A stretch of DNA of 64,000 bases, from assembly GCA_965372795.1 (NCBI GenBank), contig CBDVDR010000007.1:94838-158837 (forward strand), written 5' to 3'. Below the pieces are notes generated by a model, which saw nothing but the letters and a program-made list of their open reading frames with translations, did no database searches and was not told the origin of the DNA. Below are positions 21,165 through 36,438 of the stretch, piece after piece. This stretch comes from an uncultured bacterium (GTDB taxonomy: Bacteria; Zixibacteria; MSB-5A5; GN15; FEB-12). Position numbers and translations under genes: made by a program. Positions within the stretch are counted from its first letter, which is position 1. Each line of letters opens with the position of its first letter.

Positions 21165-22538
21165 TTACTTATTAACAACCAATTCCGACATAAATTTCTC
21201 AGCTGACATCTTTTCACAGCTAAAAATGACCTTCTTTACATTTTCCATCTCTGTCTCAGAAAGCAATCCTTCAGCCAGAGAATTAAATTTAACGGTCAAA
21301 TCATCATCGGTCATCGGTTCTCTTGGATCACCTTTGGGATATTCAAGATATTCTTCATATGAATTTCCATCATTGGTTGTAATCACAACTTTAGATGGCT
21401 GTTTGGCGGGGAACATCTGTTCAAATTCCTGAGAGGCTTCCCCTTTGATTTTGTCAATAACTTCCCAAATCCGGGCATCTTTCATCTTTTCATCAGAGAA
21501 GGACTGGGTTGTAATCTGTTTGTCAACTATGGCAGCGGCCAGACAATACGGCAGAGAGTGATCGGCGGTCTCTCTTGATTCCGGACGATATTTGTGCTGA
21601 TCAAAAAGAATATCACAAGCACGGGCAATCGTAGTAACGACTACTTCTTTGATATCATCATAGTTAATATCATTATCGCGGATAACTTTCAGTGTACAAC
21701 TTAAATGAGTATGGGTTAAGGCTTCGGTTGGGAATGCTTTCATACTGCATTCTAAAATTTTATATTTTTCTCCCAAACCGCCAATCAGTTTATCTTCGTC
21801 CCATTTTGGTCCGAAAACATCCATCAATCCTTCTTTGCCTTCAAACACCGCTTCGGTTCCGCTGTAACCCTTTTGTGCCATCAGAGCCGCAAAGACTCCG
21901 CTCTGCACAGCCATCGGATCAACCGTATTTTTCATCATCGTCAATTTCCCGGCAGTAGGACACCCGATAGTATGATTATGCGAACCATTGATACCGATAG
22001 CATTAACCATTTGATCAACAGTGAGACCGAGAATTTTACCGGCAACAATTGGAGACACAAATTGAGTCAAAGTTGCATGGTGCCATTTTCTTTCTCTTAC
22101 TCCGGGTACGGCAAATTCACAAAGACGCATCTCAAATTCATAAGCTAAAACAATAGCCGTGATGACTTCTTTCATGGACGCACCAACCATCTCAGCCATA
22201 GAGAGGGCAGCCGGGATGATATCTGATGGATGCGAAGGATCTTCTTTCCAATAGATGTCGTTGTAATCAAGCGCCCGAAACATCAGCGAATTCACCAGCG
22301 TAGCATTGACTGCCGGTATCCGATCACCAAATCCGATAACGGTAGCTTCTTCTTTACCAGCCATATTGATATAAATATCACGCAGAATATTAACATCTTT
22401 CGTATGATATCCGCCATAGGCGCATCCGACCGAATCATAAAGATAGCGTTTAACTTCTTCAATGACATCCGGCGGAAGATCGTTGTAGTTTAAGTTGACT
22501 GCAAATTCAGAAATTTTTCTTGAGATTGTCTTTTTCAT
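21165..22538 (-). CDS. prpD: MmgE/PrpD family protein (2-methylcitrate dehydratase-like)
   Basis: RALDYND, SHPSD, SRETADHSLPY, YPKGDPREPM. Confidence 0.85.
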   Translation of the reverse strand: MKKTISRKISEFAVNLNYNDLPPDVIEEVKRYLYDSVGCAYGGYHTKDVNILRDIYINMAGKEEATVIGFGDRIPAVNATLVNSLMFRALDYNDIYWKEDPSHPSDIIPAALSMAEMVGASMKEVITAIVLAYEFEMRLCEFAVPGVRERKWHHATLTQFVSPIVAGKILGLTVDQMVNAIGINGSHNHTIGCPTAGKLTMMKNTVDPMAVQSGVFAALMAQKGYSGTEAVFEGKEGLMDVFGPKWDEDKLIGGLGEKYKILECSMKAFPTEALTHTHLSCTLKVIRDNDINYDDIKEVVVTTIARACDILFDQHKYRPESRETADHSLPYCLAAAIVDKQITTQSFSDEKMKDARIWEVIDKIKGEASQEFEQMFPAKQPSKVVITTNDGNSYEEYLEYPKGDPREPMTDDDLTVKFNSLAEGLLSETEMENVKKVIFSCEKMSAEKFMSELVVNK

Positions 22539-22565
22539 TTTCTTTAAACTCTCTATTCAATAGAT

Positions 22566-24533
22566 TTATAAATTCTTTTTTACCCAGTTTTCAAGACCTT
22601 CAACAACTACCAGTTCCTGTGCAGCGGCACCGACCGGACTGATAGAATAAGTTTTCCCATTGTATTCAATGATAGAGTTCTGGAAATCTACAACAACTTC
22701 CCCTCCGGATGCAACAGTTAGTTTTTCAATCCCGAGTTCTTTTTTTAAATCATCAACCAGTTCCGGACATTCGATAGTAAGAAACCCATTATTGAGCGCA
22801 TTCCGTTTATATGTTTCGCTGAACGAACCGGCAATGACTAATTTTATCCCGCGATATTTTAAAGCCGTAGCCGCCTGTTCACGTGAAGAACCGGTTCCAA
22901 AATTGTACCCGCCGATTAAAATATCACCCTCATTAACAAGTTTTCCGAATTCGGAATCATAGTTTTCCATTACTACTTCAGCTTGTTGCTTTGGAGTAAA
23001 ATCATCGACATAGGTATATTTTCCGGGATAAATACCATCGGTATTTAAATTATCCTGATGGCAGAAAATAAGCCTGCCTTCCAATCCTATTGAGAATCCA
23101 TCAATAATCGGAACCGAGCCTGATGCTGTTGATTTTTGGGTCTTTATATTAATATCACCTTTGATAGAAGCATCTTCGATTTCAAACGGCATGTCAACAT
23201 GTCCAGCTATTGCCGAAGCGGCAACCACAGCCGGAGAGGCAAGGTACGCTTTGGCATCACGGGAGCCCATGCGTCCTTTGAAATTTCTATTTGTAGCCGA
23301 AATGCCAACTTCACCGTCTTTTAACAGTCCGGCACCAAGACCGATACAAGGTCCGCATCCGGGAGACAGCTCAATCGCACCCGAATCAAGCAGCGTCTGC
23401 CAATCACCGCGGCGTTCGCTTTCTTTTTGTACTTCACTTGAGGCAGCCGCAATATAGAACTCAACACCATCAGCCACCTGTTTGCCTTTGACAACCTCTG
23501 CTGCTTCGGCAAGATCCTCAACCCGGCTATTAACGCAAGAGACCAGATATGCTTTATGAATCTTCATCTGTTTCTCTTTCATCTCAGTTGCGGGAGTCAT
23601 AATTTTGACATGGTCCGGACCGGACAGATAAGGAGTTACTGAATCCAAGTCCAAAGTTAGTTCTTTAGCGTAAAAAGCGTCAGGATCCGGCTGAACAATA
23701 TTAGCTTTTAATTCATCCAGGCGTTGTTTATTTAAACGGGGATGAGTTCCATTCCCATCAGAATCAGATGGCACTCCTTCTAGCCCTCTTTTCTCAACAA
23801 AGGATATTCTCTGCTTGAGCCAATTGAGTGTAACTTCATCTATTGGGAAAACACCGGCAAGCGCTCCCCACTCGGTAGTCATATTTGAAATTGTTAATCT
23901 TTCATCAACCGAAAGATTAGCAATCCCATCACCAGAAAATTCTATGGCATGGTTCAGTACTTCATCTTTATTGAAAAAACCACATAATGCAATAATGACA
24001 TCTTTCCCGGTTACTCCTTTGCGAAGTTTCCCATTCAAATTAACTTTTGCTACCGGCGGAACCTGCCACCAGGTTCTTCCCGTTGCCCATATCGCCGCCG
24101 CATCCGTTCTAACAATCGGAGTTCCCAAACATCCCAATCCTCCATGCATATTGGAGTGACTGTCCGAGGCTACAATCATTCTTCCCGGCCAGGAATATCC
24201 TTCTTCACATAAAATCTGATGACCGATACCTCTTCCAGCCGGGTAAAAATCAACACCCATCTCTTTGGCAAAGGCTTCGATCCGGGCATACTTGGCAAGG
24301 TTTTCATCGCTTCTATTTTGAACATTATGATCAAGAGTAAAAACGACCTGACGAGGGTTGGCTATTTTGGTAGCACCTATTGATTTAAATTTTGGTATAA
24401 CTGCCCCGGTGTTATCATGGGTCATAACATGTGCCGGTTGTATCGACAGATAATCTCCGCTTTGGACAATCTGATTTTCTGCTAATCCAACAGCATACTT
24501 TTGAGCAATTTTTTCAACTATATTTTGAGCCAT
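22566..24533 (-). CDS. lysF: Single-chain aconitase-family hydratase, most like fungal-type homoaconitase (LysF/Lys4)
   Basis: MTHDNT, GRGIGHQI, VASDSHSN..GG.G.LGTPIVRTDAAAIWATG.TWWQ, VSCVNSR, CGPCIG; fused swivel domain GTGSSREQA. Confidence 0.75.
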   Translation of the reverse strand: MAQNIVEKIAQKYAVGLAENQIVQSGDYLSIQPAHVMTHDNTGAVIPKFKSIGATKIANPRQVVFTLDHNVQNRSDENLAKYARIEAFAKEMGVDFYPAGRGIGHQILCEEGYSWPGRMIVASDSHSNMHGGLGCLGTPIVRTDAAAIWATGRTWWQVPPVAKVNLNGKLRKGVTGKDVIIALCGFFNKDEVLNHAIEFSGDGIANLSVDERLTISNMTTEWGALAGVFPIDEVTLNWLKQRISFVEKRGLEGVPSDSDGNGTHPRLNKQRLDELKANIVQPDPDAFYAKELTLDLDSVTPYLSGPDHVKIMTPATEMKEKQMKIHKAYLVSCVNSRVEDLAEAAEVVKGKQVADGVEFYIAAASSEVQKESERRGDWQTLLDSGAIELSPGCGPCIGLGAGLLKDGEVGISATNRNFKGRMGSRDAKAYLASPAVVAASAIAGHVDMPFEIEDASIKGDINIKTQKSTASGSVPIIDGFSIGLEGRLIFCHQDNLNTDGIYPGKYTYVDDFTPKQQAEVVMENYDSEFGKLVNEGDILIGGYNFGTGSSREQAATALKYRGIKLVIAGSFSETYKRNALNNGFLTIECPELVDDLKKELGIEKLTVASGGEVVVDFQNSIIEYNGKTYSISPVGAAAQELVVVEGLENWVKKNL

Positions 24534-25423: not shown

Positions 25424-26026
25424 ATGAGAAAAAAAATTGATAGAAAAAAACAGATACTTGAAGAAGCTACAAAATTGTTCAGCGCCCATGGTTATGACAA
25501 AGTAACTGTTAAAGATTTATCAATGGCAGTTGGAATTTCTGAACCGGCATTATACCGTCACTATCAATCTAAAGCAGCAATATATGACACTGTTCTTCTC
25601 TCAATAGAATCACGTCTCGATTGCACTGATTTATTTATTGAGTTAGAAAAAATAGATGATTTAGATAAAATTCTAAAAACACTAGCTAGTCATATTCTTG
25701 TGTTCTTTACCGCTAATGAAGATCTGTACCGCCTACTCCTTTATTCAGCCTTAAAAGGACACGAAAAAGCCAATCAGATTTATCAAATTATCAGAGGATC
25801 ATATATCAAATTTCTTATCAAAAAATTTGATGAGCTCTATCAAAAGGGCACAATAATCGAAAAGAAAAATGATATTACTGCCCGATGTTTTGTAGGAATG
25901 GTATTTGACTGTTCCTTAGGCACTACTCTTTGGAAAAATTTCCAGGGCAAAGTGTACAAACCACACGAAGTTATAGCCAATAATATTCCAATCTATGTAA
26001 AAGGTTTATCAACAAAAGCTGAATAA
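25424..26026 (+). CDS. TetR/AcrR family transcriptional regulator
   Basis: ILEEATKLFSAHGYDKVTVKDLSMAVGISEPALYRHYQSK helix-turn-helix. Confidence 0.95.
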   Translation: MRKKIDRKKQILEEATKLFSAHGYDKVTVKDLSMAVGISEPALYRHYQSKAAIYDTVLLSIESRLDCTDLFIELEKIDDLDKILKTLASHILVFFTANEDLYRLLLYSALKGHEKANQIYQIIRGSYIKFLIKKFDELYQKGTIIEKKNDITARCFVGMVFDCSLGTTLWKNFQGKVYKPHEVIANNIPIYVKGLSTKAE

Positions 26027-26068: not shown

Positions 26069-26086
26069 TTAGTTAACGCTAACTAA
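26069..26086. promoter_or_regulatory. Putative TetR operator 2
   Basis: Perfect inverted repeat TTAGTTA-ACGC-TAACTAA just before the RBS of the decaheme cytochrome gene. Confidence 0.7.
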
Positions 26087-26103
26087 TGCACCAAGGAGGT
26101 ATC

Positions 26104-27039
26104 ATGTTTCAACACAACAAAGATGGTTCCCGATATCGCAAGTTTCTTGTGATAGGTATGGGATTACTTGCCATCTTGCTTGTTGCTCCCGCAAGTTTTG
26201 CAGGAGTTGCAAACGATGTGTGTGCCGGTTGCCATGATGAAGTTAGTGAATCATTTCACAAAACTTCTCACAGCAGCTATTTAGTGCAGGAGCAGTTCAG
26301 TTGTGAAAGCTGTCATGGATCAGCTATTGATCATATCAATAGTGGCGATCCGGAACAGATTATCAACCCTGCTCGTCATGATCAGATTGGCGGAAAAGAA
26401 CTCTGCTTGAGCTGTCACGACAATCATCGTTTTGATGAATGGAGTATTTCATCCCACAACACAGCCGGTCTTACTTGTGCCGATTGCCACAAGGTTCATG
26501 AAGACGGCGGCAATGTGGCGAAGAAATCTGCTCCGGAACTTTGCTATAGTTGTCATAGTAATGTTCGAGCTGCAATGTCTATGCCATCACACCACCCAAT
26601 CATGGAAGGTCATATGACCTGTCAGGATTGTCATGGCGTTCATGGCGAAAAACCAGTAATGGCAATGAACGACGGAAGCAAAGAATTATGCTATAGTTGT
26701 CATGCAGAAAAAGAAGGACCTTTTGTTCACGAACATGCCCCGGTGAATGAAGATTGTATGATTTGTCATTCTCCTCATGGCACGGTTGCCAAAAGTCTTC
26801 TTAAACAGAGCGAGCCATCGTTATGTTTGAGCTGTCATCCAATGCATTTCCATGCTACAGTTGTCAGTATTGATGGAGATTTTACAACTCCGCTTGCACC
26901 TGAAAGAGCCGGAACATCAACTTCCGATTCCTTCAAATCAGGCATGTTGACCAAATGTACTCAGTGTCATACTGAAGTTCATGGTTCCGATATGCCTTCA
27001 CAAACAATTTCAACCGGCGCCGCCGGATTAACCAGGTAG
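26104..27039 (+). CDS. DmsE/MtrA/MtoA-family periplasmic decaheme c-type cytochrome
   Basis: 10 CXXCH, signal peptide, GPFVHEHAPV and CTQCHTEVHGSD motifs; ATG 26104 after AGGAGG. Confidence 0.92.
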   Translation: MFQHNKDGSRYRKFLVIGMGLLAILLVAPASFAGVANDVCAGCHDEVSESFHKTSHSSYLVQEQFSCESCHGSAIDHINSGDPEQIINPARHDQIGGKELCLSCHDNHRFDEWSISSHNTAGLTCADCHKVHEDGGNVAKKSAPELCYSCHSNVRAAMSMPSHHPIMEGHMTCQDCHGVHGEKPVMAMNDGSKELCYSCHAEKEGPFVHEHAPVNEDCMICHSPHGTVAKSLLKQSEPSLCLSCHPMHFHATVVSIDGDFTTPLAPERAGTSTSDSFKSGMLTKCTQCHTEVHGSDMPSQTISTGAAGLTR

Positions 27040-27048
27040 GAGAATTAA

Positions 27049-29229
27049 ATGAACAAATACAAAATGATTTTTGTTGGTTTGCTCGTTCTTCTGCTGGCAG
27101 GATCTGTACTCTCAGCCGTAGAAAACGATGCTACAATCGAAAAGTATTCACTTTGGATCGGTACTCATTACACCGAATTTTCTGATTATACTAAAAAAGT
27201 CGGAAAATATAATCTTGGTAATAATGAAATGTTACCTGAATTCATGGTGAATTACATTTCCAAATCATCAAACGGAATGTTTTCACTTGATGGACATTAC
27301 TTCGATGATCAAAATATTTTAGGTAAAGTAAAAACCACTATTAGTGATAAATTTAAAGCCAAATTCCAATATCGTTCAATGACTTTACAGGAAGGTCAGG
27401 ACCTTCTTGAAAATATTGAAGCCAGAGAATGGTTGGAATCAGCAGGTAAACCTGGTGGAAAGATGTTAACCCACGAAATTCTTGATGTTGATGCTGATTA
27501 CAAAACTCATCGTCAGGAAATTTTGGGCGAACTTGAAGTTCTACTATCAAAGAAAAACAATGTTCGTTTGATAGCTGCTCATCGTTCGGTCTTAAAAAAA
27601 GGTACCGAACAGAAGATTGCTTCCAACCATTGTTTTAGCTGTCACTTAACTTCGCAAAGTGCGAAGGTTGATCAACGGCAACACCAGTTTGAAACCGGTA
27701 TTGATGCTGAAGTCATAAATTTCGATCTTGGATACCGTTTTGGGTATCGCTTGTTCGAAAGTAATGCTACACCATCAACTGCCTTTTATGATGATGCTGT
27801 TCATCCTGTAAATGGAGGTTCCGGTGGAGAATTCGGAGCACGGGTGATCTATGATGACACAATCACAACTTTCAGCCGGTATCCGAAAACCGAAAAAATA
27901 TCACATAAAGTTCGCTTAAAAGGTGACGTTGGCACTGGTTATTTAACCGGTACAGTCGGATATAGCAAAACCGAGAATAAGTATACTCAGCTTGCAAATC
28001 AAGCCTGGGTTGGAGCCGGAAGTTATTCTTTATTAATGAACGATAAAACACGTTTAATTGCTAAAGTTTCGGCAACTAAAGTAAAATCTGATAATGTCTT
28101 TATCGATTTACCGACTTATCGCGATGGTTTAGCTGATGGCAATTCATATGATTTTGATTATATGCGATATTCATCACTTGATCGGATGGAATCAAAATTC
28201 ATTGCTGAAATTATCACAAAACTAAACCCAAAATTGACTTTGTCAGTTTTAGTTGGATATAACTTCACTAACCGTGATTATTATCCGGTTCGTAATGATG
28301 GAATTCAAACAAAAAAACTTATCGGTCAGTTTAAACTGAGATTTAGAAAAGGGCTTCGTTATAACAACTCGTTCAAATACCGGTTTGAGAAAATTACTGA
28401 TCCATTTGTTTCCTCAAGAGGATTGTTTGAAGAAGTTGGACATGGTAATGATATTCTGACTCCTTTGGTTCCAACTTCAAGTTGGGTCTTCTATTTCCAA
28501 AGAGAAGAACTTCGTTATCAGGATATTACTACGATGCCTACTCAGATCCACAAGTTTGAATGGCGTTCAACTTATTCACCTAACTCGAAGTACAGCATTA
28601 ATATGGGTGTTAATGGCAAACTTGATAAAAACAGTGAATTGGGTCAGTTGGATGTGAAACATGTATCATACCAGCCAAACTTTTACATGAACTACACTCC
28701 AGATGCGAAATGGGCAATGACAACCGGCTATACTTATAGCTATGACAAGTCACAATTACCGATTACGGTAGCCCTTTTCGATGGCTGAGGTGGCCATATT
28801 TTCCGCGACGCCGGTGGCGACGCTCGACACTATGGTTCTATGTACACCATGGCTGATTATGAAAACAAAGTTCACAATATTTATTTTACAACCAACTTCT
28901 TACCAACCGAAAAACTCCGTATTTTCGCTACTTTGGCTTACAACAAAGCTGAAGGATCGTTAGAAGAAGTCATTATGCCCGATATTGAAGCCCAATTAAA
29001 TGGCGATCTTGAGGATCAGGATTTTACATTCGAAGAAATGCACACTTATAGTGATCTCGATTATAAATATCTAAATCTCAATATTGGGCTTTCTTATGCT
29101 CTCACCCCAACTGTTTCCTGGACAGCTGATGGTGATTTTATTGATTTAACTGATAATACAGGGTATGTCTACGGAAATGAATCCGGATCATATTTCTTAA
29201 TTCGGACCGGATTTAAGATAGATTTCTAA
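27049..29229 (+). CDS. Outer-membrane beta-barrel (MtrB/PioB-position porin) with one CXXCH and a probable selenocysteine at codon 580 (726 aa read-through)
   Basis: ORFs 27049..28788 and 28840..29229 are in the same frame and separated only by TGA (FDG-U-GGHIFRDAGGDARHYGSMY); signal peptide, CFSCH, C-terminal beta-signal TGFKIDF, SECIS-like hairpin. Confidence 0.8.
28789..28837 (+). promoter_or_regulatory. Putative bacterial SECIS element
   Basis: Upper stem GCG-A-CGCC/GGU loop/GGCG-A-CGC with the loop 24 nt after UGA; lower stem GGCCAUA/UAUGGUU. Confidence 0.7.
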
Positions 29230-29257: not shown

Positions 29258-29293
29258 CAAGGTTGTGTTATTTTCCAAAATAACGCAACCTTG
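29258..29293 (+). terminator. Long hairpin after the porin gene (terminator or mRNA stabiliser)
   Basis: CAAGGTTGTGTTATTTT-CC-AAAATAACGCAACCTTG; no clear U-tract. Confidence 0.5.
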
Positions 29294-29450
29294 TGAAAAA
29301 TAGCACTTGCGGTAATCAAGATAATATATATATTAGGCTATTAAAGATAGATTTTGGAGAGAATAGCAGAAGGTTAACTTTTTATTATACAACGGCTTTT
29401 TAATAATAAGATAGTTTAGATTGTTTTAAAAAATACAAAAAAGACCGGAA

Positions 29451-30647
29451 ATGAACATGATGAAATACTTAAGTTATATACTAATCATTCTTTTAGCAGG
29501 CTCATTATCAGCCAATGAGAAATGCATCGAATGTCATCAAGCAAACCCTCCCCAGGGAATGGAAGCTGCCAAATATGATATTCGGACGCTGGATCTTTCT
29601 GTGCATAAAGATGCAGACTGTATTGATTGCCATAAAATTGATCCGGAAAAAAAACATGCCGGCGAAAAAGGTGTTCTTTGTGGCAATTGTCATGAAGATA
29701 TTGAAGAGACCTATTGCAGATCTCCTCATCAAAATGGTCAACAAGATAATATTGACTTACTCCCAAACTGTGTGAAATGTCATGGCGGTCATGACATTCT
29801 TCGAAGTGATGATACAAACTCCATAACCAACCGCAAAAAGATTATAAAAATATGCATTAGCTGTCATGAAGACGAAAAATTAACCAGTGAAGTTAATCAG
29901 ATTCCAGAAGCGGCAATGATTAAATCTTATGAAAATTCAGTTCATGGAAAAGCCTTGCTGATCGATGGCAACGAAGAAGCTCCTTCTTGTATTGATTGTC
30001 ATGGAAGTCATTCTAATTTACCATCTGATAATCCCGATAGTCCGATTTATAAAACTCATATAGCCGAAACCTGTGGTAAATGCCACTTAGAAGAAGCTAA
30101 ACATTTTCAGGAATCGATACATGGAGAAACTCTTTCCAAAGGTGTCCTGGAGTCACCAACCTGTACAAATTGTCACGGTGAACATAACATAAAGGCTCAT
30201 CTTGATCCTGAATCAAAAGTTTATGCAACTAATGTTGTAAAAACCTGCAGTGGGTGCCATACCTCTGAGGTTATAGTAGGAAAGTATGGTCTTAAAGCTG
30301 ACCGCATTGAAACATTCAAAGAATCTTTCCATGGAGTAGCAATAGAATTTGGTGAGACTAAAGCCGCTAATTGTGCATCCTGTCATGGGGTTCACGATAT
30401 TTATCAACAATCCCATCCAAAGTCTTTGATAAATAAAGATAATATTCAGGCAACTTGCGGAAAATGTCATGATGATCTTCCGGCTGATTTTTCACAAGGC
30501 ACATTTCATAAATCTGCCAGCGATAAAGAATCCGGCGCAGAATATTATGTTAGAAATTTCTATGTTTGGTTTATTACCATTTTAATCTTTGGTTTCATTA
30601 TATATCGTGTTCTTGAATATAAGCGTCGTGTAAAACGTGTGGAGTAG
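29451..30647 (+). CDS. Membrane-anchored multiheme cytochrome c (11 CXXCH, CbcA-like)
   Basis: Signal peptide, 11 CXXCH, repeated SVHG/SIHG/SFHG His ligands, C-terminal TM. Confidence 0.9.
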   Translation: MNMMKYLSYILIILLAGSLSANEKCIECHQANPPQGMEAAKYDIRTLDLSVHKDADCIDCHKIDPEKKHAGEKGVLCGNCHEDIEETYCRSPHQNGQQDNIDLLPNCVKCHGGHDILRSDDTNSITNRKKIIKICISCHEDEKLTSEVNQIPEAAMIKSYENSVHGKALLIDGNEEAPSCIDCHGSHSNLPSDNPDSPIYKTHIAETCGKCHLEEAKHFQESIHGETLSKGVLESPTCTNCHGEHNIKAHLDPESKVYATNVVKTCSGCHTSEVIVGKYGLKADRIETFKESFHGVAIEFGETKAANCASCHGVHDIYQQSHPKSLINKDNIQATCGKCHDDLPADFSQGTFHKSASDKESGAEYYVRNFYVWFITILIFGFIIYRVLEYKRRVKRVE

Positions 30648-30655
30648 TTATAGAG

Positions 30656-31720
30656 ATGTTTAATAAAAAAATAAAATTGACCTTCTTCATGAGTGCTTTC
30701 CTATTGCTTCTTTTTGCATCAGATATTTTTGCATTAGAAAAATGCCTTCTTTGTCATAGGAAACATGATCTGGTTAAAACTGAAGAGACCGGTCGAAAAG
30801 TATCACTTTTTGTAGACGAAGAGTTACTCGCACAATCTGTACATTCCACCAGAATCTGTACCGATTGTCACGTGGACATAGTTGACATTCCACATGAAAA
30901 GGGTGTAAAAAAAGTTAATTGTCGTCGGTGTCATTATTCCGGTAACCCGATTGGAGCTCCTGAAGGGGCTTTATATGATCAATATGAACATAGCGTTCAT
31001 GGTCTTGAAGTTGCAGCTGGAAATCAAAAAGCACCTGTTTGCCAAAATTGTCATGGATCCCATGATATTTTTGCACCTGATTCTACAGCATCATCAATAA
31101 ACAAAGCAAATATTCCTGCAACATGCGGGAGCTGTCATATCGATATTTACGCAACTTATCAGGAATCAGTTCATGGAGTTGCTTTAAAAAATGGTAACTT
31201 AGATTCACCTGTCTGTTCTGATTGTCATGGCGAACATAGCATTGCCAGACCAGAGGACCCAACCTCGTCTGTTTATGGTACAAATCTTACAGCAACCTGT
31301 TCTGATTGTCATGGTCCTAAAGGAGTCGTATCAAAATATGGCATTAAAACCGACCGGGCAGCTACATTTGAAGATTCATTTCATGGCGTAGCTCAAAAAA
31401 TGGAAAGCCGGTTTGTTGCCAATTGTTCATCATGTCACGGTTTTCATGATATCCGATCAGATAATGATCCAAAATCGATGATTCATCCTGACAATATTCC
31501 ACAAACTTGCGGACAAACAAACTGTCACCCTGAAGCAAGTTCCACTTTTGCCACAGGACAGATTCACATTGATCCAACCAGTGAGGAATCCGGTATACTT
31601 TATTATATTTCAAAGTTTTTCCTGATTCTAACAGTTGCGACATTAATAGGTTTATTATTATTTATATTTCTTGATCTCTTCCGCCGGGCAAGATCATCTA
31701 GAGAAAAGAGTGGTCATTAA
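30656..31720 (+). CDS. Membrane-anchored multiheme cytochrome c (8 CXXCH + CX4CH, CbcA-like)
   Basis: Signal peptide, 8 CXXCH plus CGQTNCH, C-terminal TM; stop overlaps the next start. Confidence 0.9.
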   Translation: MFNKKIKLTFFMSAFLLLLFASDIFALEKCLLCHRKHDLVKTEETGRKVSLFVDEELLAQSVHSTRICTDCHVDIVDIPHEKGVKKVNCRRCHYSGNPIGAPEGALYDQYEHSVHGLEVAAGNQKAPVCQNCHGSHDIFAPDSTASSINKANIPATCGSCHIDIYATYQESVHGVALKNGNLDSPVCSDCHGEHSIARPEDPTSSVYGTNLTATCSDCHGPKGVVSKYGIKTDRAATFEDSFHGVAQKMESRFVANCSSCHGFHDIRSDNDPKSMIHPDNIPQTCGQTNCHPEASSTFATGQIHIDPTSEESGILYYISKFFLILTVATLIGLLLFIFLDLFRRARSSREKSGH

Positions 31721-32670
31721 TGGACAAAAACGCTAACAACTTTAACAAAAACAGACAATCTCTGATTAGTCAATTATCGGATAATATTGTTAATTCTTTT
31801 GTCTCATTATTCAAAGAAAGAACTGACCAAAAAACCAGAGATAAAATTGTAAAAGAAGTAAATGAACGGCTTAATTTTGAAATTAATGTTACTCTGAATG
31901 AATTGGTAACAAAATATGCTCCTGAAAAGAGAGTCGATGTAAAAGAAGAAGCCCCCCCTCGTACTTTTGAAAGATTTGGTAAGAACTTCCGGGCTCAACA
32001 TATGCTTATGTTCGTGTCGGTCATCATTCTGGTTATTACCGGAATGCCATTAAAATTTCCCGAATTTGATTTTGCCAAGTTCATCATCATTGACCTGCTG
32101 GGAGGATTAGAAAATTCCACCTTCCTTCATCGGGTAGGTGCGGTTGGATTGATCATTGTTGGTCTCTGGCATTTGATCTATACCGTTGCTTCCCGTTTAG
32201 GGCGGCGTGATTTTATTTTAATGATACCATATCCACAGGATATAAAAGATTTCTTCACTACTATTTTTTACTATATCGGAAGAAGAAAAACAGGAGCCAA
32301 ATTCGGACGTTTTAGTTTCATTGAAAAATTTGATTATTGGGCTGTATACTGGGGCATGATCATTATGATTGGTTCCGGCAGCATTATGTGGTATAAGGAA
32401 ATTTTTCCAAAATATATATTTGATATTGCACGTGAGGCTCATTCTGATGAAGGATTACTGGCAACATTAGCAATTGTTGTTTGGCATTTCTATAATGTTC
32501 ATTTCAATCCTGAAGTCTTCCCTATGAGCTGGGCGTGGTGGCATGGTCAACTAACAGAAAAAGAGATGAAACATCATCATCCCCTTGAATATGCGCAAAT
32601 CATGGAAGCTGAGAGTAATGAAATTATCTCTAAACAGACACAGGATAACAATAGCAAGGAGCCTGAATAA
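31720..32670 (+). CDS. Diheme cytochrome b (FdnI/CbcB-like) membrane subunit
   Basis: RAQH..., LHRVGA, FGRFSFIEKFDYWAVYWG, HSDEGLLA..WHFYNVH, HHHPLEY. Confidence 0.88.
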   Translation: MDKNANNFNKNRQSLISQLSDNIVNSFVSLFKERTDQKTRDKIVKEVNERLNFEINVTLNELVTKYAPEKRVDVKEEAPPRTFERFGKNFRAQHMLMFVSVIILVITGMPLKFPEFDFAKFIIIDLLGGLENSTFLHRVGAVGLIIVGLWHLIYTVASRLGRRDFILMIPYPQDIKDFFTTIFYYIGRRKTGAKFGRFSFIEKFDYWAVYWGMIIMIGSGSIMWYKEIFPKYIFDIAREAHSDEGLLATLAIVVWHFYNVHFNPEVFPMSWAWWHGQLTEKEMKHHHPLEYAQIMEAESNEIISKQTQDNNSKEPE

Positions 32671-34238
32671 TGCTTTCTTTATTTTCTGATTTATTTCAGG
32701 TCTTAAAAACACATAAAAAACAACTTGGAATTTTATTATTGATAGTTGTGACCATATCTATCATGGGTGGACTAATTCTCAAATACGAAACAACTCAATC
32801 TGAATTTTGTGATTCGTGCCATTATATGGCTCCGTATGTCAGACATTGGGAAGCTTCTTCTCACGCAGATGTAGATTGTCGCCAATGCCATGATTATGGC
32901 GTAACAGATTTAATTGGTTCTGCTATCAAATATGGTACAAATTCTTATAATAACCGACCAAAAGCAATCGTAAATGATGAAAGCTGTCTTGCTTCTGGAT
33001 GTCATGAAAATCAAAATCTTGAAGGTGCTATAGAATACAAAAACAATGTGTTTTTTGATCACTCCAAACATCTTGAAAAAGCATTACGTGGCGAAAAATT
33101 ACGCTGTACATCATGCCATAACCAAATTGTTCAATATGATGACGACAGTCAAGGGCATATGAGTGTTAATGACAAAAGCTGTTTTATCTGTCACTTTAAA
33201 GATGCCGGTGTAGGCGAAGCAATTACCGGTTGTAACTCCTGTCATGGAATGCCGGAAAAAGAAGTAGAACATGCCGGATTTATGTTCAATCACAAACCTT
33301 ATTTGGAGTTAAATGTTGAATGTAAACAGTGTCATACAAATATTGTAAAAGGTGACGGGGCAGTTCCTGAATCAAGATGTCATTCTTGTCATGTAGAACG
33401 TTCTCGCACTGATTTAGGACGCGAACAAGTTCACAATATTCATATTACAGAAAATGGTATAGATTGTTATAAATGCCACACTGATATTGAACATGGCAAT
33501 TTCTCGATGGTTAGCGCTTTGGAAGTTGAATGTGAAAGCTGCCATTTAAGACAACATAATCAGCCTAAACAACTTTATATGGGAATTGGCGGCAAAGACA
33601 ATATTGATATGCCAAGTGAAATGTTTACAGCTCAGGTTTCTTGCACCGGCTGTCATACTCATATTTCTCCCGAAGGCGAAATATTGGCACGCCAGGAAAA
33701 AAAGGAAGCTGCCAAAAATTCCTGTGTTACCTGTCATGGTGAAGATTACGATCTGATGTTTGACAATTGGATTTCGGGATCTAAAAAAGTATTGGGTGAT
33801 TATAAAAAATTCATAAGTGCTGCCAAAACAGATTTGAGAAGTATTGGCGGAAACAAAAAAAGTCGCCGCGATGCTCAATCTGCTCTAAGTAAAGCTGAAT
33901 ATCATTATAACTTTACCAAAGAAGGACACTTTGCACATAATATCAAATATGCATCCTTCCTTCTTAATTATAGTGCCGATGAGTTTGAGGTTGCTATGAA
34001 AAAGATTAAAAAATCATATAAGGCTCCGAACCGTGGCAATGGTCTGAAACCTGATAATTCATGTGAAACTTTCTGTCATGGAAATGCCTTCAGACCTGAA
34101 ACAGTAATGCATGAAGGGGAAGAACTACCCCATTTGTTGCATATTGAAGATATGGAAGTCAGCTGTAGCAGCTGTCATTCAACAAGTGAACATGGCAAAA
34201 CAAATATCCAACAAGATGTTTGTTCTGAATGCCATTAA
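32670..34238 (+). CDS. NapC/NirT-like N-terminally anchored multiheme cytochrome c (13 CXXCH + CX4CH + CX3CH)
   Basis: N-terminal TM, T...FCDSCHYM..Y...W..SSH..V.C..CH NapC-type start. Confidence 0.85.
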   Translation: MLSLFSDLFQVLKTHKKQLGILLLIVVTISIMGGLILKYETTQSEFCDSCHYMAPYVRHWEASSHADVDCRQCHDYGVTDLIGSAIKYGTNSYNNRPKAIVNDESCLASGCHENQNLEGAIEYKNNVFFDHSKHLEKALRGEKLRCTSCHNQIVQYDDDSQGHMSVNDKSCFICHFKDAGVGEAITGCNSCHGMPEKEVEHAGFMFNHKPYLELNVECKQCHTNIVKGDGAVPESRCHSCHVERSRTDLGREQVHNIHITENGIDCYKCHTDIEHGNFSMVSALEVECESCHLRQHNQPKQLYMGIGGKDNIDMPSEMFTAQVSCTGCHTHISPEGEILARQEKKEAAKNSCVTCHGEDYDLMFDNWISGSKKVLGDYKKFISAAKTDLRSIGGNKKSRRDAQSALSKAEYHYNFTKEGHFAHNIKYASFLLNYSADEFEVAMKKIKKSYKAPNRGNGLKPDNSCETFCHGNAFRPETVMHEGEELPHLLHIEDMEVSCSSCHSTSEHGKTNIQQDVCSECH

Positions 34239-34250
34239 TAGATATGAATT

Positions 34251-34277
34251 GAGATCGATTTGAAAGAAATCGGTCTC
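34251..34277 (+). terminator. Intergenic hairpin
   Basis: GAGATCGATTT-GAAAG-AAATCGGTCTC. Confidence 0.4.
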
Positions 34278-34402
34278 TAACAAAAAAGGTTTTAATTGTA
34301 TACAATGCGAAAAAAGGTTTTTTTTGTGAACAAAGTGGATATTATTGTCAATAATGAGACAAATAATGTCCTGTTAATTTTATTTTACTATTGAGAGGTA
34401 TA

Positions 34403-36376
34403 ATGATGAAAAAGGTATGCGCATTTGCGTTACTTCTTCTGTTGAGTCTTTATCTGCCTGTGTTTGCACAGGATGACAATGAAACTTGTTTATCATGCCA
34501 TGGTGAAGACTCTGATTTAGAGGGCTTAAACATACACGGCGAAATGATTTCAATGTATGTAACATCTGCTTCGTTGGATTCGTCAATTCATTCTGAAATG
34601 GATTGTATTGAGTGTCATACAGATTTGGAAGGGTTTGATGATTATCCACACGATGAAGATCTTATAAGTGTTGATTGTTCTTCATGTCATGATGATATAA
34701 ATGAAATATTTATGTCTTCTGCTCACGGATTAGCTTTAGATAATCCAAATTCAGCAACATGTGCATCTTGCCATGGAACCCATAACATTCTTCCTGAGGA
34801 TAATCCATTAGCATGGACTTCAGCAAAAAATCTTCCTTACACCTGTTCCAATTGCCATCATCGAAAATCACTTAAAGATGATCCTGACATCAAAATAATT
34901 GATTCATTTGACAGGTATATGCGTGGTATTCATGCTGAGGGTATAACAAAAGGAATCGGTTCAGCTGCATCATGTAATGATTGTCATGGAATCCATGATT
35001 TGAAAAAGGCTTCCGACCCAAACTCTTTGGTTAACAAAGTAAATGTTCCAAAGACTTGTGCAAAGTGCCACAATGATATTTTCATTAAATATAGTCAGGG
35101 AATTCATGGTAAAGCACTAAATGCGGGTATTTTAGATAGCCCAAATTGTTCAGATTGTCATGGCGAACACGAAATTCTTGGAGTCGACGATCCTTCATCG
35201 CCGGTGAATATTTCCAATGCGTCTGATTATGTTTGTGGAAAATGCCATAATGACCCTCAATTGATTGAAAAATACGGTTTAGGTAAAGAACATTTTTCTT
35301 CCTATCAGGACTCTTATCATGGTTTAGCTGTTAAAGGCGGATCTCTTAAAGCTGCTAACTGTATATCATGCCACAAAGCTCATGACATCCTTCCTCAATC
35401 AAATATTGCATCTTCGATCCACCCTGACAACTTAACCAAAACCTGTCAAAAATGTCATCCGATGGCTAATGATGCTTTTGCAGCAAGTTATTCTCACAAT
35501 ATAGCAGAAGAGCAATTTGCTACAATGAACCGCTATATTGAAGTCATTTACATTATTGCGATTGTCTTAATTATCGGCGGAATGCTTCTTCATAATGGAA
35601 TTATCTTATTTAGATTTCTTCTTGATAAACATCGAGCTTCAAAAGGCGTTCCAACTATTCAAAGGTTTACCGGTAATATGGTTTACCAACATATGATATT
35701 ATCTATAACATTCATTGTACTGGCGATAACAGGATTTGCATTAAAATATCCTGATGCCTGGTGGGTTTCAATAATTAATTTCTTTGGAATCTTTGAATCA
35801 GCAAGATCTGTTATCCACCGTATTTCAGCAGTACTATTGATTTATATTTCAATCCATCATGCTCTTTATCTTCTTTTCACCCGCCGTGGAAGAGAAGAAG
35901 TAATAGCCATCTGGTTTACCAAAAGTGATATGATGCTGGTTATTAATAATGTGAAGTATCATCTTGGACTAATTGATGAAAAACCAAAATTTGATCGTTA
36001 TGATTATACTGAAAAGGCCGAGTATTGGGCATTGGTATGGGGAACACTGGTAATGGTTGCCACAGGTTTTGTGCTCTGGTTCCCTACTTTCTATACTTCA
36101 TTTTTACCACCATGGATAATAAAAGTATCAGAAATCGTTCATCTCTATGAAGCCTGGCTTGCTTCGCTTGCTATTATTGTTTTCCACTTCTTCTTTGTAA
36201 TTTTCCATCCCGAGCAATATCCTATGTCATTTACATGGATAACCGGAAGGATGAGTGTTTCCGAAGTCAAACACCATCATCCGATCTGGTATGAGAAAGT
36301 AAAAGCAGAGCAGGAAGAAGCAGATAAAAAAGCTAATGAGAAAATCGAAAACAAACTTCCCAAGGAATCAAAATAG
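34403..36376 (+). CDS. CbcL-like fused multiheme cytochrome c (11 CXXCH) / cytochrome b inner-membrane protein
   Basis: Signal peptide, 11 CXXCH, then a cyt b domain (YQH, IHR, FDRYDYTEKAEYWALVWG, VHLYEAWLA, HHHPIWY). Confidence 0.88.
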   Translation: MMKKVCAFALLLLLSLYLPVFAQDDNETCLSCHGEDSDLEGLNIHGEMISMYVTSASLDSSIHSEMDCIECHTDLEGFDDYPHDEDLISVDCSSCHDDINEIFMSSAHGLALDNPNSATCASCHGTHNILPEDNPLAWTSAKNLPYTCSNCHHRKSLKDDPDIKIIDSFDRYMRGIHAEGITKGIGSAASCNDCHGIHDLKKASDPNSLVNKVNVPKTCAKCHNDIFIKYSQGIHGKALNAGILDSPNCSDCHGEHEILGVDDPSSPVNISNASDYVCGKCHNDPQLIEKYGLGKEHFSSYQDSYHGLAVKGGSLKAANCISCHKAHDILPQSNIASSIHPDNLTKTCQKCHPMANDAFAASYSHNIAEEQFATMNRYIEVIYIIAIVLIIGGMLLHNGIILFRFLLDKHRASKGVPTIQRFTGNMVYQHMILSITFIVLAITGFALKYPDAWWVSIINFFGIFESARSVIHRISAVLLIYISIHHALYLLFTRRGREEVIAIWFTKSDMMLVINNVKYHLGLIDEKPKFDRYDYTEKAEYWALVWGTLVMVATGFVLWFPTFYTSFLPPWIIKVSEIVHLYEAWLASLAIIVFHFFFVIFHPEQYPMSFTWITGRMSVSEVKHHHPIWYEKVKAEQEEADKKANEKIENKLPKESK

Positions 36377-36400: not shown

Positions 36401-36438
36401 AAAAGCCCCCTTTGTTTATCAAAGGGGGCTTTATTTTT
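36401..36438. terminator. Bidirectional Rho-independent terminator
   Basis: AAAGCCCCCTTTG-TTTAT-CAAAGGGGGCTTT between convergent operons. Confidence 0.85.

Follow-up and report, generated by a model that had tools for sequence, protein, structure and literature searches.

Two open reading frames (ORFs) that share a frame and are separated by a single TGA raise the question of whether that codon ends one protein or encodes selenocysteine (Sec) within a longer one, and, in the latter case, what the longer protein would do. The question arises here in a window of 64,000 nucleotides (the whole stretch of DNA that was analyzed) from an uncultured bacterium, in which a 579-codon ORF (27049–28788) lies in the same frame as a 129-residue ORF (28840–29229), with TGA 28786–28788 as the sole intervening stop. 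A preliminary description of this DNA had read the pair as a hidden selenoprotein, an outer-membrane porin with a heme motif. We examined the coding frame, the conservation of the TGA and of a hairpin downstream of it, the Sec machinery of the genome, the predicted fold of the read-through product, and the surrounding genes.

Results

Positions 27049–28785 and 28789–29226 form a single gene that is broken only by the TGA (Table 1), and read-through translation gives 726 residues (...ALFDG-U-GGHIFRD...). The preliminary description had pointed out the shared frame with its lone TGA, the CXXCH motif (CFSCH) of the barrel, the absence of a ribosome-binding site before the downstream ORF, and a terminal GFKIDF that only the read-through product possesses. 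Each of these observations holds: the motif spans residues 195–199, no ribosome-binding site was found ahead of ATG 28840 when the sequence was read, and the last five strands of the modeled barrel, together with the C-terminal Phe, need read-through. The C-terminal residue is aromatic in most of the relatives inspected. At the other end of the protein, the signal peptide would be cleaved after ...VLSA, as judged by eye. Nowhere else in the 64-kb window does a lone TGA link one open stretch of 150 or more codons to another of 60 or more. A genome-wide sense reading of TGA was rejected, given this one TGA-joined long pair in 64 kb and the presence of a dedicated tRNA-Sec.

Table 1. Features of the selenoprotein locus and its neighborhood, in window coordinates.
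Feature	Position	Strand	Basis or detail
TetR-family regulator gene, heads the cluster	25424..26026	+	Pfam TetR_N, E 4.5e-14
MtrA-like periplasmic decaheme cytochrome gene	26086..27039	+	317 aa, 10 CXXCH; 9 nt upstream of the barrel gene
Shine-Dalgarno-like AGGAG	27038..27042	+	6 nt ahead of the barrel-gene ATG 27049; read from sequence
Whole predicted selenoprotein gene, GSU2204 family	27049..29229	+	726 codons + TAA; MtrB-like 26-strand barrel (model)
Signal peptide, residues 1–23	27049..27117	+	hydrophobic N-terminus; modeled helix, residues 2–22
CXXCH, C195-F-S-C198-H199, preceded by H194	27631..27645	+	tip of the hairpin between strands 7 (172–192) and 8 (199–222)
UGA codon 580, predicted to be read as selenocysteine	28786..28788	+	same-column TGA in relatives
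Possible lower stem, weakly supported	28792..28837 (28792–28798 with 28831–28837)	+	minimum-energy fold
SECIS upper hairpin, GCG-A-CGCC[GGU]GGCG-A-CGC	28805..28823	+	covariation across 49 sequences
GFKIDF, end of the C-terminal strand; beta-signal-like, with terminal Phe	29209..29226	+	strand 26 of the model, residues 713–725
Downstream electron-transfer genes	29451..36376	+	Pfam/NCBIfam matches, motif counts
11-CXXCH gene	29451–30647	+	motif count
8-9-CXXCH gene	30656–31720	+	motif count
Cytochrome b gene	31720–32670	+	Pfam/NCBIfam
Membrane-anchored 13-15-CXXCH gene	32670–34238	+	motif count
11-CXXCH + cytochrome b fusion gene	34391–36376	+	motif count, Pfam/NCBIfam

To assess the TGA in other genomes, we extracted and aligned 49 relatives (33–66% identity), the comparison at codon 580 that the preliminary description had proposed as a check. 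All 49 carry TGA in the same column, and among match rows from 285 genomes of the phylum, TGA is found in 110 of the 111 that span residue 580 (hand count). Conservation extends to both sides of the codon, with identities by codon position downstream of the TGA (0.573, 0.639, and 0.361) equal to those upstream (0.556, 0.631, and 0.338). The 146 codons past the TGA share 29–72% identity with relatives, and H594, G596, and S597, all encoded past the TGA yet ahead of the next ATG (M598), are invariant. Among the best 150 representatives from 1.84 billion scanned, about 77 stop at query residue 579, at identities down to 22%, and about 27 are C-terminal pieces called as separate proteins (hand counts). 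N-part representatives end in xG in 74 of 75 cases, and all 19 database homologs returned by one search are 568–586 residues long and end at the UGA. Stop-free relatives also exist; the Sec column holds Cys in two of eight (P0091 and P0122) and Gly, Leu, or Lys in the other six, and all lack the SECIS-encoding insert but keep the CXXCH.

The 50 nt that follow the TGA are 62% GC in a gene of 37.4% GC, and the GC-richest 50-nt stretch of the gene (66%) begins at 28779. The hairpin in this region places its loop 24 nt past the UGA, as had been seen in the preliminary description, to which our comparison adds compensatory changes. Across the 49 sequences, 81.4% of cells are paired versus 66.6% after shuffling, double-change cells number 59 versus 17.6 (none of 500 shuffles reaches 59), and the covariation value is 0.356 versus 0.120 (0/500), whereas controls at slid positions pair at 28–60%. 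The spacing from UGA to loop is 24 nt in 43 of the 49 relatives, and the loop starts with G in 46/48 (triplets GGU in 22, GUG in 14, and GUU in 9). The folding energy of the region is ordinary (z = −1.02; 27 of 200 shuffles fold equally well), and hence the support for the hairpin comes from covariation, not from folding energy. Rfam gave no match at the locus at gathering thresholds. The lower stem that had also been described stands as far as the minimum-energy fold of the window is concerned, in which GGCCAUA pairs with UAUGGUU, but does not stand as a conserved element: it is 65.6% paired, with 1–3 double changes per pair, in the 49 sequences, and we rejected it as such. Both of its arms code conserved residues (G-G-H and H-Y-G).

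The preliminary description had also suggested searching the genome for selA, selB, selC, and selD, and all four are present. The proteins score 513.6 bits (selA), 323.6 bits (selB), and 389.3 bits (selD), and a tRNA-Sec with anticodon UCA scores 68.9 bits, all above curated cut-offs. As a separate observation, the genome's selD itself contains one in-frame TGA.

The conserved UGA, the covarying hairpin, and the complete Sec machinery together support the original reading of 27049–29229 as a selenoprotein gene. The product scores 537.1 bits with the NCBIfam model NF041027 (“GSU2204 family CXXCH-containing (seleno)protein”), whose cut-off is 350, and its residues 13–579 align to positions 2–580 of 580 (538.2 bits in the genome search); the model ends exactly at the Sec position. 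The preliminary description had named a GSU2204-like CXXCH (seleno)protein beside a decaheme gene, and this match bears it out exactly. The word “hidden” does not survive: besides the curated model, NCBI has already given the family name to relatives, including those from Geothermobacteraceae and from other metagenome genomes, and the family appears in tables of two reviews on selenoproteins. One of these, from 2026, refers for the family to Zhang and Gladyshev 2008; the words “cytochrome,” “outer membrane,” and “CXXCH” do not occur in that paper's main text. The gene is therefore a member of a family already catalogued as a selenoprotein, neither hidden nor new, and its identification is not a discovery. 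Members are spread over the FCB group, Gemmatimonadota, and Geothermobacteraceae, and one close homolog is labeled “FCB group bacterium.” The window protein shares with the family the single CXXCH, the Sec after D-G, and the upstream decaheme gene; nothing essential differs, and the window lineage has His before the CXXCH. No experiments on a GSU2204-family protein were found in the literature searched. What the present analysis contributes is the placement of the CXXCH and Sec in a predicted barrel, where each caps one of its two tallest hairpins, and a characterization of the stop-free relatives.

An AlphaFold model of the 726-residue product had been proposed as a further check. The AlphaFold2 model (pLDDT 79.8, pTM 0.74) is a barrel of 26 strands, and its best match among solved structures is MtrB of Shewanella MtrCAB (6R2Q chain B, 6r2q_B; E 5.3e-22, TM 0.66/0.73), with 12% identity in the structural alignment. 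This match leads the next ones (∼1e-9) by about 13 orders of magnitude. Pfam returned no family for the 726-residue product at E ≤ 0.01, MtrB_PioB (PF11854) included. In the model, the tight turns (2–5 residues) all lie on one face and the long loops all on the other, an arrangement that MtrB shares along with its 26 strands; the CXXCH and Sec occupy the tips of hairpins 7/8 and 21/22, respectively, both on the long-loop face. The published description of MtrB places its tight turns in the periplasm, and has its extracellular loops cover MtrA except for heme A10 (PMC7198977). By strand topology, as in MtrB, the long-loop face that bears the CXXCH and Sec is probably extracellular. The Sec loop (residues 578–592) has pLDDT values below 50, and the block 190–199 averages 61. 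The preliminary description had proposed that Sec and heme could make up a surface catalytic site at the end of the decaheme wire. Hairpins 7/8 and 21/22 are 12–14 strands apart of 26 and so stand on opposite walls, which argues against direct contact between Sec and a heme unless the loops bend across the lumen; we regard such contact as unlikely. The model and the motif counts given below support an MtrB-like barrel for the product, with a single conserved CXXCH. MtrB itself has neither CXXCH nor Sec but an N-terminal CXXC.

As in the MtrB system, an MtrA-like decaheme gene lies directly upstream of the barrel gene. Its product matches TIGR03508 (DmsE-family) at 216.9 bits (cut-off 192.2) and falls just below the cut-off of NF041028 (GSU2203 family; 317.5 bits versus 325). 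Of 30 loci, the window's own included, 26 have a ten-CXXCH ORF that ends 7–54 nt ahead of the barrel gene, and in the remaining four the upstream ORF runs off a contig end or is divided between frames. Downstream, 10/30 loci have no multiheme ORF within the available sequence (only 4 nt at one locus), and another arrangement, a 3-4-CXXCH ORF, follows instead in 10/30; the five of these ORFs with inspected N-termini look membrane-anchored, and both of the two tested match NapC/NirT. The 30 loci thus share no conserved neighbor gene for an MtrC-like surface cytochrome, and in this the window locus differs from Shewanella MtrCAB. In Geobacter, GSU2203 and GSU2204 are listed as up 2.7- and 2.4-fold with hematite (PMC4070692, Table 2). 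Beyond the last of the downstream electron-transfer genes in the window, a hairpin with T-runs on both strands lies at 36402–36432.

The motif itself is strongly conserved. H194, C195, C198, and H199 are invariant in 49/49 relatives, exactly one CXXCH is present in 75/75 N-part representatives and in 8/8 stop-free relatives (down to 22% identity), and in 45/49 relatives the mature protein has exactly two Cys, both within the CXXCH. Of 74 Sec-type representatives in the whole library, 49 have His and 25 have Lys just before the motif, and in many of the Lys-type ones a Cys also lies seven residues ahead of Sec. A link between H194 and Sec was considered, with His present in 49/49 Sec forms versus 0/9 stop-free relatives, but was rejected because the His is lineage-specific, as the 25 Sec-type representatives with Lys indicate.

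On balance we lean toward a barrel with one covalently bound heme c at its outer mouth, since C-x-x-C-H is the signature of covalent heme c and is retained, with its invariant His, in every set of relatives counted above, and since the operon holds many c-type cytochrome genes. Outer-membrane barrels with a single heme motif do exist: Cyc2, like the window protein, combines a barrel and one CXXCH in one polypeptide. The Cyc2 motif is N-terminal, and its barrel is much smaller. Cyc2 is not known to have Sec or a decaheme partner, and the window barrel does not fit its layout, with the motif at residue 195 in a barrel-wall hairpin between strands 7 and 8 of 26. A Sec barrel in which the CXXCH carries no heme, and in which C195, C198, and H199 (possibly joined by H194 or H178) make up a thiol-disulfide or metal site where Sec serves as a redox or metal ligand, appears to us unlikely, though it accommodates several observations. 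The extracellular-face position predicted by the model topology is awkward for periplasmic heme ligation; a heme on an extracellular loop would need the heme-bearing segment to cross barrel assembly, and we know of no shown example. The same alternative is favored by the two-Cys composition of most mature proteins, by the NCBI family name, which says “CXXCH-containing” and not “cytochrome,” and by its nearest analogy, the functional N-terminal CXXC of Shewanella MtrB, in which Fe(III) reduction requires C42 (PMC12175506).

Discussion

The locus very probably encodes one 726-residue Sec barrel of the GSU2204 family that acts as the sheath of a decaheme conduit. We favor this MtrB-like, Sec-containing sheath because of the UGA, the SECIS hairpin, the Sec machinery, the barrel model, and the adjoining ten-CXXCH gene. 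In the mechanism that we propose, UGA 28786–28788 would not act as a stop, the hairpin at 28805–28823, with its G-G-U loop 24 nt downstream, would recruit SelB with Sec-tRNA(UCA), and Sec would be inserted at position 580, as the comparative evidence suggests. The chain would be exported, lose its signal peptide, and, according to the model, fold into the 26-strand MtrB-like barrel. The decaheme cytochrome encoded 9 nt upstream may then thread the barrel as MtrA does MtrB, the two together forming a wire across the outer membrane, which the products of the downstream cytochrome b and multiheme genes could feed from the inner membrane.

We see even grounds for and against the idea that Sec is the redox-active residue of an outer-face site and not a structural one. 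Retention of costly Sec is typical of catalytic, not structural, residues, and here Sec is kept over Cys across several phyla: the best 150 representatives include about 77 truncated forms and 2 with Cys. Both points weigh against a non-catalytic Sec that makes a selenenyl-sulfide or similar link to the decaheme or a surface cytochrome and so locks or regulates the complex, and no partner Cys was identified in this analysis. Such a link, which we judge improbable, would suit the position of Sec in a flexible, glycine-rich loop (D-G-U-G-G) of low model confidence and the existence of stop-free relatives with Gly, Leu, or Lys, which imply that the barrel can work without Sec; a heterologous disulfide has likewise been proposed for C42 of MtrB, according to a paper that cites the proposal (PMC12175506). 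It is scarcely credible that the TGA is a true stop, a sequencing error, or a nonsense mutation that leaves 579- and 129-residue proteins or a dead gene: gene callers do read it so, as the lengths of the 19 homologs and the C-terminal pieces among the best 150 attest, and an ATG is available at 28840, but TGA is retained in all 49 relatives, the coding constraint is the same before and after it, the three invariant residues precede that ATG, no ribosome-binding site stands before it, the hairpin covaries, the Sec machinery is present, and a 579-residue product would, in the model, be a 21-strand open sheet without its C-terminal strand.

For a Sec barrel that does bind heme c, the two redox groups may make the MtrAB-type pair a self-contained electron outlet, which would account for the lack of a conserved MtrC-like neighbor gene. 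A more specific arrangement, which we hold to be quite improbable, has heme c at the outer mouth with Sec580 as its distal ligand or as an adjacent nucleophile, brought there by the opposite tall hairpin reaching over the lumen. If true, this would be the first selenocysteine-heme site in nature, as well as the first MtrB-type sheath to bear a cofactor, and the MtrAB pair, with no MtrC-type cytochrome, would be a complete surface reductase (of minerals, or of sulfur, selenium, or tellurium species). Like the window gene, ExtKL of Geobacter (GSU2937-2936) has been described, as an in silico proposal, as a selenoprotein within an extracellular-electron-transfer cluster (PMC5877670); ExtKL is a multiheme cytochrome of another family (NF040886), whereas the window protein is a barrel.

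Ordinary gene callers split this gene into two ORFs, and the 19 database homologs are cut at the UGA. As a result, surveys of extracellular electron transfer would count a broken porin and miss its dependence on selenium. Read through, the gene would give an outer-membrane, probably surface-facing selenoprotein that is part of a respiratory wire and is found in several phyla, and GSU2204 of Geobacter sulfurreducens offers a tractable system in which to study it.

The barrel gene is a selenoprotein gene of a catalogued family

The MtrB-like barrel gene at 27049–29229 is genuinely a selenoprotein gene and belongs to the catalogued GSU2204 family. Its two open reading frames share a frame and are separated by a single stop, a TGA, whose read-through gives a 726-residue product with the junction ...ALFDG-U-GGHIFRD..., CFSCH at residues 195–199 and the C-terminal end GFKIDF. 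The ATG at 27049 is preceded by AGGAG, and no AGGAG-like site was seen in the sequence ahead of 28840. GC content reaches 62% over the 50 nt 3′ of the TGA versus 37.4% for the whole gene, the highest-GC 50-nt stretch of which begins at 28779. No other pair of long open stretches joined by TGA occurs in the 64-kb window. The preliminary description, which had proposed read-through from the sequence alone, was correct on re-inspection in all that it stated of the sequence, including frame, TGA, hairpin, GC-rich stretch and motifs.

Positions of the features discussed (window coordinates unless a contig, C, is named; G000 is the bacterium's own genome).
Feature	Position	Strand	Remarks
PrpD/MmgE-family and aconitase-family genes	21165-24533	-	just upstream of cluster
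TetR regulator	25424		head of cluster
Barrel gene, ORF 1	27049-28788	+	579 codons
In-frame TGA (Sec, codon 580)	28786-28788	+
SECIS upper hairpin	28805-28823	+	GCG-A-CGCC[GGU]GGCG-A-CGC; loop 24 nt 3′ of UGA
Barrel gene, ORF 2	28840-29229	+	129 codons, frame shared with ORF 1
Palindrome	29259-29294		17-nt arms
Cytochrome b gene	31720-32670
Multihaem–cytochrome b fusion	34391-36376		11 CXXCH; Ni_hydr_CYTB
Hairpin with T-runs on both strands	36402-36432		cluster end
selB	C19:4128-7348 region, with selA	-	323.6 bits
selA	C19, adjoining selB	-	513.6 bits
tRNA-Sec	C19:18167-18257		68.9 bits; ARAGORN call tRNA-SeC, anticodon tca
selD (L011)	G000:C4:204174-205094		389.3 bits; one in-frame TGA
Stop-free relative L070	G044:C59:8584-11205

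Conservation spans the UGA

A six-frame search over 285 genomes of the same phylum gave matches to the barrel protein in 116. By hand count, TGA was present in 110 of the 111 match rows covering residue 580 (two of the 110 also carry TAG), the sole exception being a relative at 21% identity. Alignment of homologues at codon 580 had been suggested as a check on read-through; among 49 extracted genes (the window's own, 29 close and 19 distant relatives, at 33–66% identity), TGA occupies the same column in all 49, following an invariant D-G, with conservation on both sides. Pairwise identities at the three codon positions of these genes are nearly equal before (0.556, 0.631, 0.338) and after (0.573, 0.639, 0.361) the TGA; thus, one protein-coding constraint spans it. 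Furthermore, the residues H594, G596 and S597 vary little or not at all, even though they lie upstream of M598, the earliest possible downstream start.

Scanning 1.84 billion representative proteins with the barrel protein returned 250 matches. Among the best 150 of these, counted by hand, about 77 have their own C-terminus at query residue 579 (the most divergent at 22% identity), about 27 correspond to a C-terminal part alone, and 8 run the full length with no stop. Nearly all representatives of the N-terminal part (74/75, 500–670 residues) terminate in xG. In the eight stop-free relatives, the Sec column holds Cys in two and Gly, Leu or Lys in six. Three stop-free proteins at about 21–24% identity (L070, P0113 and P0148), one of them a Thermotomaculum hydrothermale protein annotated as MtrB/PioB family, keep the CXXCH and an H-x-G-S motif after the loop; their Sec column holds Leu or Lys, and they lack the SECIS-encoding insert. 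In the branch of Sec forms with Lys in place of His before the CXXCH (P0058, P0126, P0127, P0130, P0134, P0145, P0147, P0152, P0168 and others), many proteins also have a Cys seven residues upstream of Sec (for example, F-C-Q-G-F-Y-D-G), which may be a selenenyl-sulfide partner; this Cys is not present in the window's lineage.

The SECIS upper hairpin covaries

We measured covariation on the 49-sequence DNA alignment, from 6 nt upstream of the TGA to 54 nt downstream. In the upper stem, 81.4% of cells are paired versus 66.6% in shuffled alignments (28–60% at slid control positions), the covariation score is 0.356 versus 0.120, and 59 cells show double-sided changes versus 17.6 in shuffles, a value reached by 0 of 500; one pair by itself occurs as AU 22, GC 11, UA 9 and CG 2 times. 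Loop triplets are GGU (22), GUG (14) and GUU (9), and 43 of 49 sequences have a UGA-to-loop distance of 24 nt, the remainder 21 or 27 nt. The SECIS-like fold of the preliminary description is thus upheld in its upper hairpin, whereas the relatives give no support to its lower stem (65.6% paired). Folding energy of the hairpin by itself was not unusual (z = −1.02). The 10–25 residues encoding the hairpin are missing from stop-free relatives, and therefore the SECIS belongs to an insert that only the Sec forms have.

The genome encodes the selenocysteine machinery

Selenocysteine machinery had been named as a further check, and selA, selB, selD and tRNA-Sec were all found in the 3.35-Mb genome (98.65% complete). 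The selA/selB pair and tRNA-Sec lie about 11 kb apart on one contig (loci L001, L009 and L013). Because the in-frame TGA of selD falls within the family match, selenophosphate synthetase is itself probably a selenoprotein here.

The barrel model resembles MtrB

A Pfam search of the barrel protein found no family. NCBIfam NF041027, “GSU2204 family CXXCH-containing (seleno)protein,” covers residues 13–579 with 537.1 bits (cut-off 350), its model terminating at the Sec position; the preliminary description had named this family rightly. An AlphaFold2 model built on a 29-row alignment is a 26-strand barrel (pLDDT 79.8, pTM 0.74), and among solved structures the Mtr-complex protein MtrB matches it best (6r2q_B; E 5.3e-22, TM 0.66/0.73, 12% identity), followed by TonB-dependent receptors and LptD at about 1e-9. 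The 579-residue product would be devoid of strands 22–26 and the C-terminal Phe.

In the model's strand list, alternate connections are tight turns of 2–5 residues, and the others are loops, the longest having 48 residues. MtrB has its tight turns on the periplasmic side, and its long loops reach about 45 Å outward, covering MtrA save for the last haem (PMC7198977). The modeled CXXCH is at the tip between strands 172–192 and 199–222, and Sec580 is in the loop joining strands 555–575 and 597–617 (loop pLDDT below 50); by analogy with MtrB, both would be on the extracellular face. The four flanking strands are the longest in the model (21–24 residues versus 10–17), and the two hairpins, 12–14 strands apart, are predicted to stand on opposite barrel walls.

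The decahaem gene is the steady neighbor

Nine nucleotides upstream of the barrel gene lies a gene with ten CXXCH motifs, which scores above the cut-off of the DmsE/MtrA-type decahaem model (216.9 versus 192.2 bits) and slightly below that of the GSU2203-family model (317.5 versus 325). Of 30 loci, 26 have a ten-CXXCH ORF 7–54 nt upstream, and the remaining four are contig-cut or frame-split. The downstream side is variable, with a multihaem ORF in 20 loci and none within the downstream DNA examined in 10. Therefore, the decahaem and the barrel make up the conserved core, and no MtrC-like partner is fixed. In 10 of the 20 loci with a multihaem ORF (L023, L024, L027–L032, L034, L035), the next gene encodes a 3–4-CXXCH protein of about 370–450 residues; the five whose N-termini were inspected look membrane-anchored, and both of the two tested match the NapC/NirT N-terminal family. 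Together with the decahaem and the barrel, this gene would make a compact unit that includes a quinol oxidase.

The window's cluster opens with the TetR regulator, comprises four multihaem genes and two cytochrome b modules, and closes at the end hairpin. One module is a single ORF fusing multihaem and cytochrome b parts and the other a separate gene; both are quinol-linked modules of the inner membrane. A near-perfect palindrome lies 30 nt past the barrel stop, within the 222 nt that separate the barrel gene from the next cytochrome gene. It is not followed by a T-run and could be an RNA hairpin or, given the TetR gene at the head of the cluster, an operator. The PrpD/MmgE and aconitase-family genes nearby look like methylcitrate-cycle genes.

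Relation to previous work

The gene had been described as a “hidden” selenoprotein, which does not hold, since the family is catalogued in NF041027 and in review tables and its name is already in use at NCBI for relatives. A 2022 review table gives the family as an MtrB/PioB family selenoprotein (PMC9312934), and a 2026 review table attributes the family to Zhang and Gladyshev 2008, in the main text of which “cytochrome,” “outer membrane” and “CXXCH” do not occur. The sole result on GSU2203/GSU2204 function found in the literature searched is that they rise 2.7-fold and 2.4-fold, respectively, with haematite (PMC4070692, Table 2); GSU2203 is also listed in a mutation table (PMC13194489). An electrode-community survey reports an MtrB-like porin in Ignavibacteria, with no mention of selenocysteine in the text excerpted (PMC7399161).

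Our additions are modest: a formal demonstration that the SECIS covaries, predicted placement of CXXCH and Sec on the extracellular face in the two tallest hairpins, stop-free relatives without the SECIS-encoding insert, and the lack of conservation of an MtrC-type neighbor.
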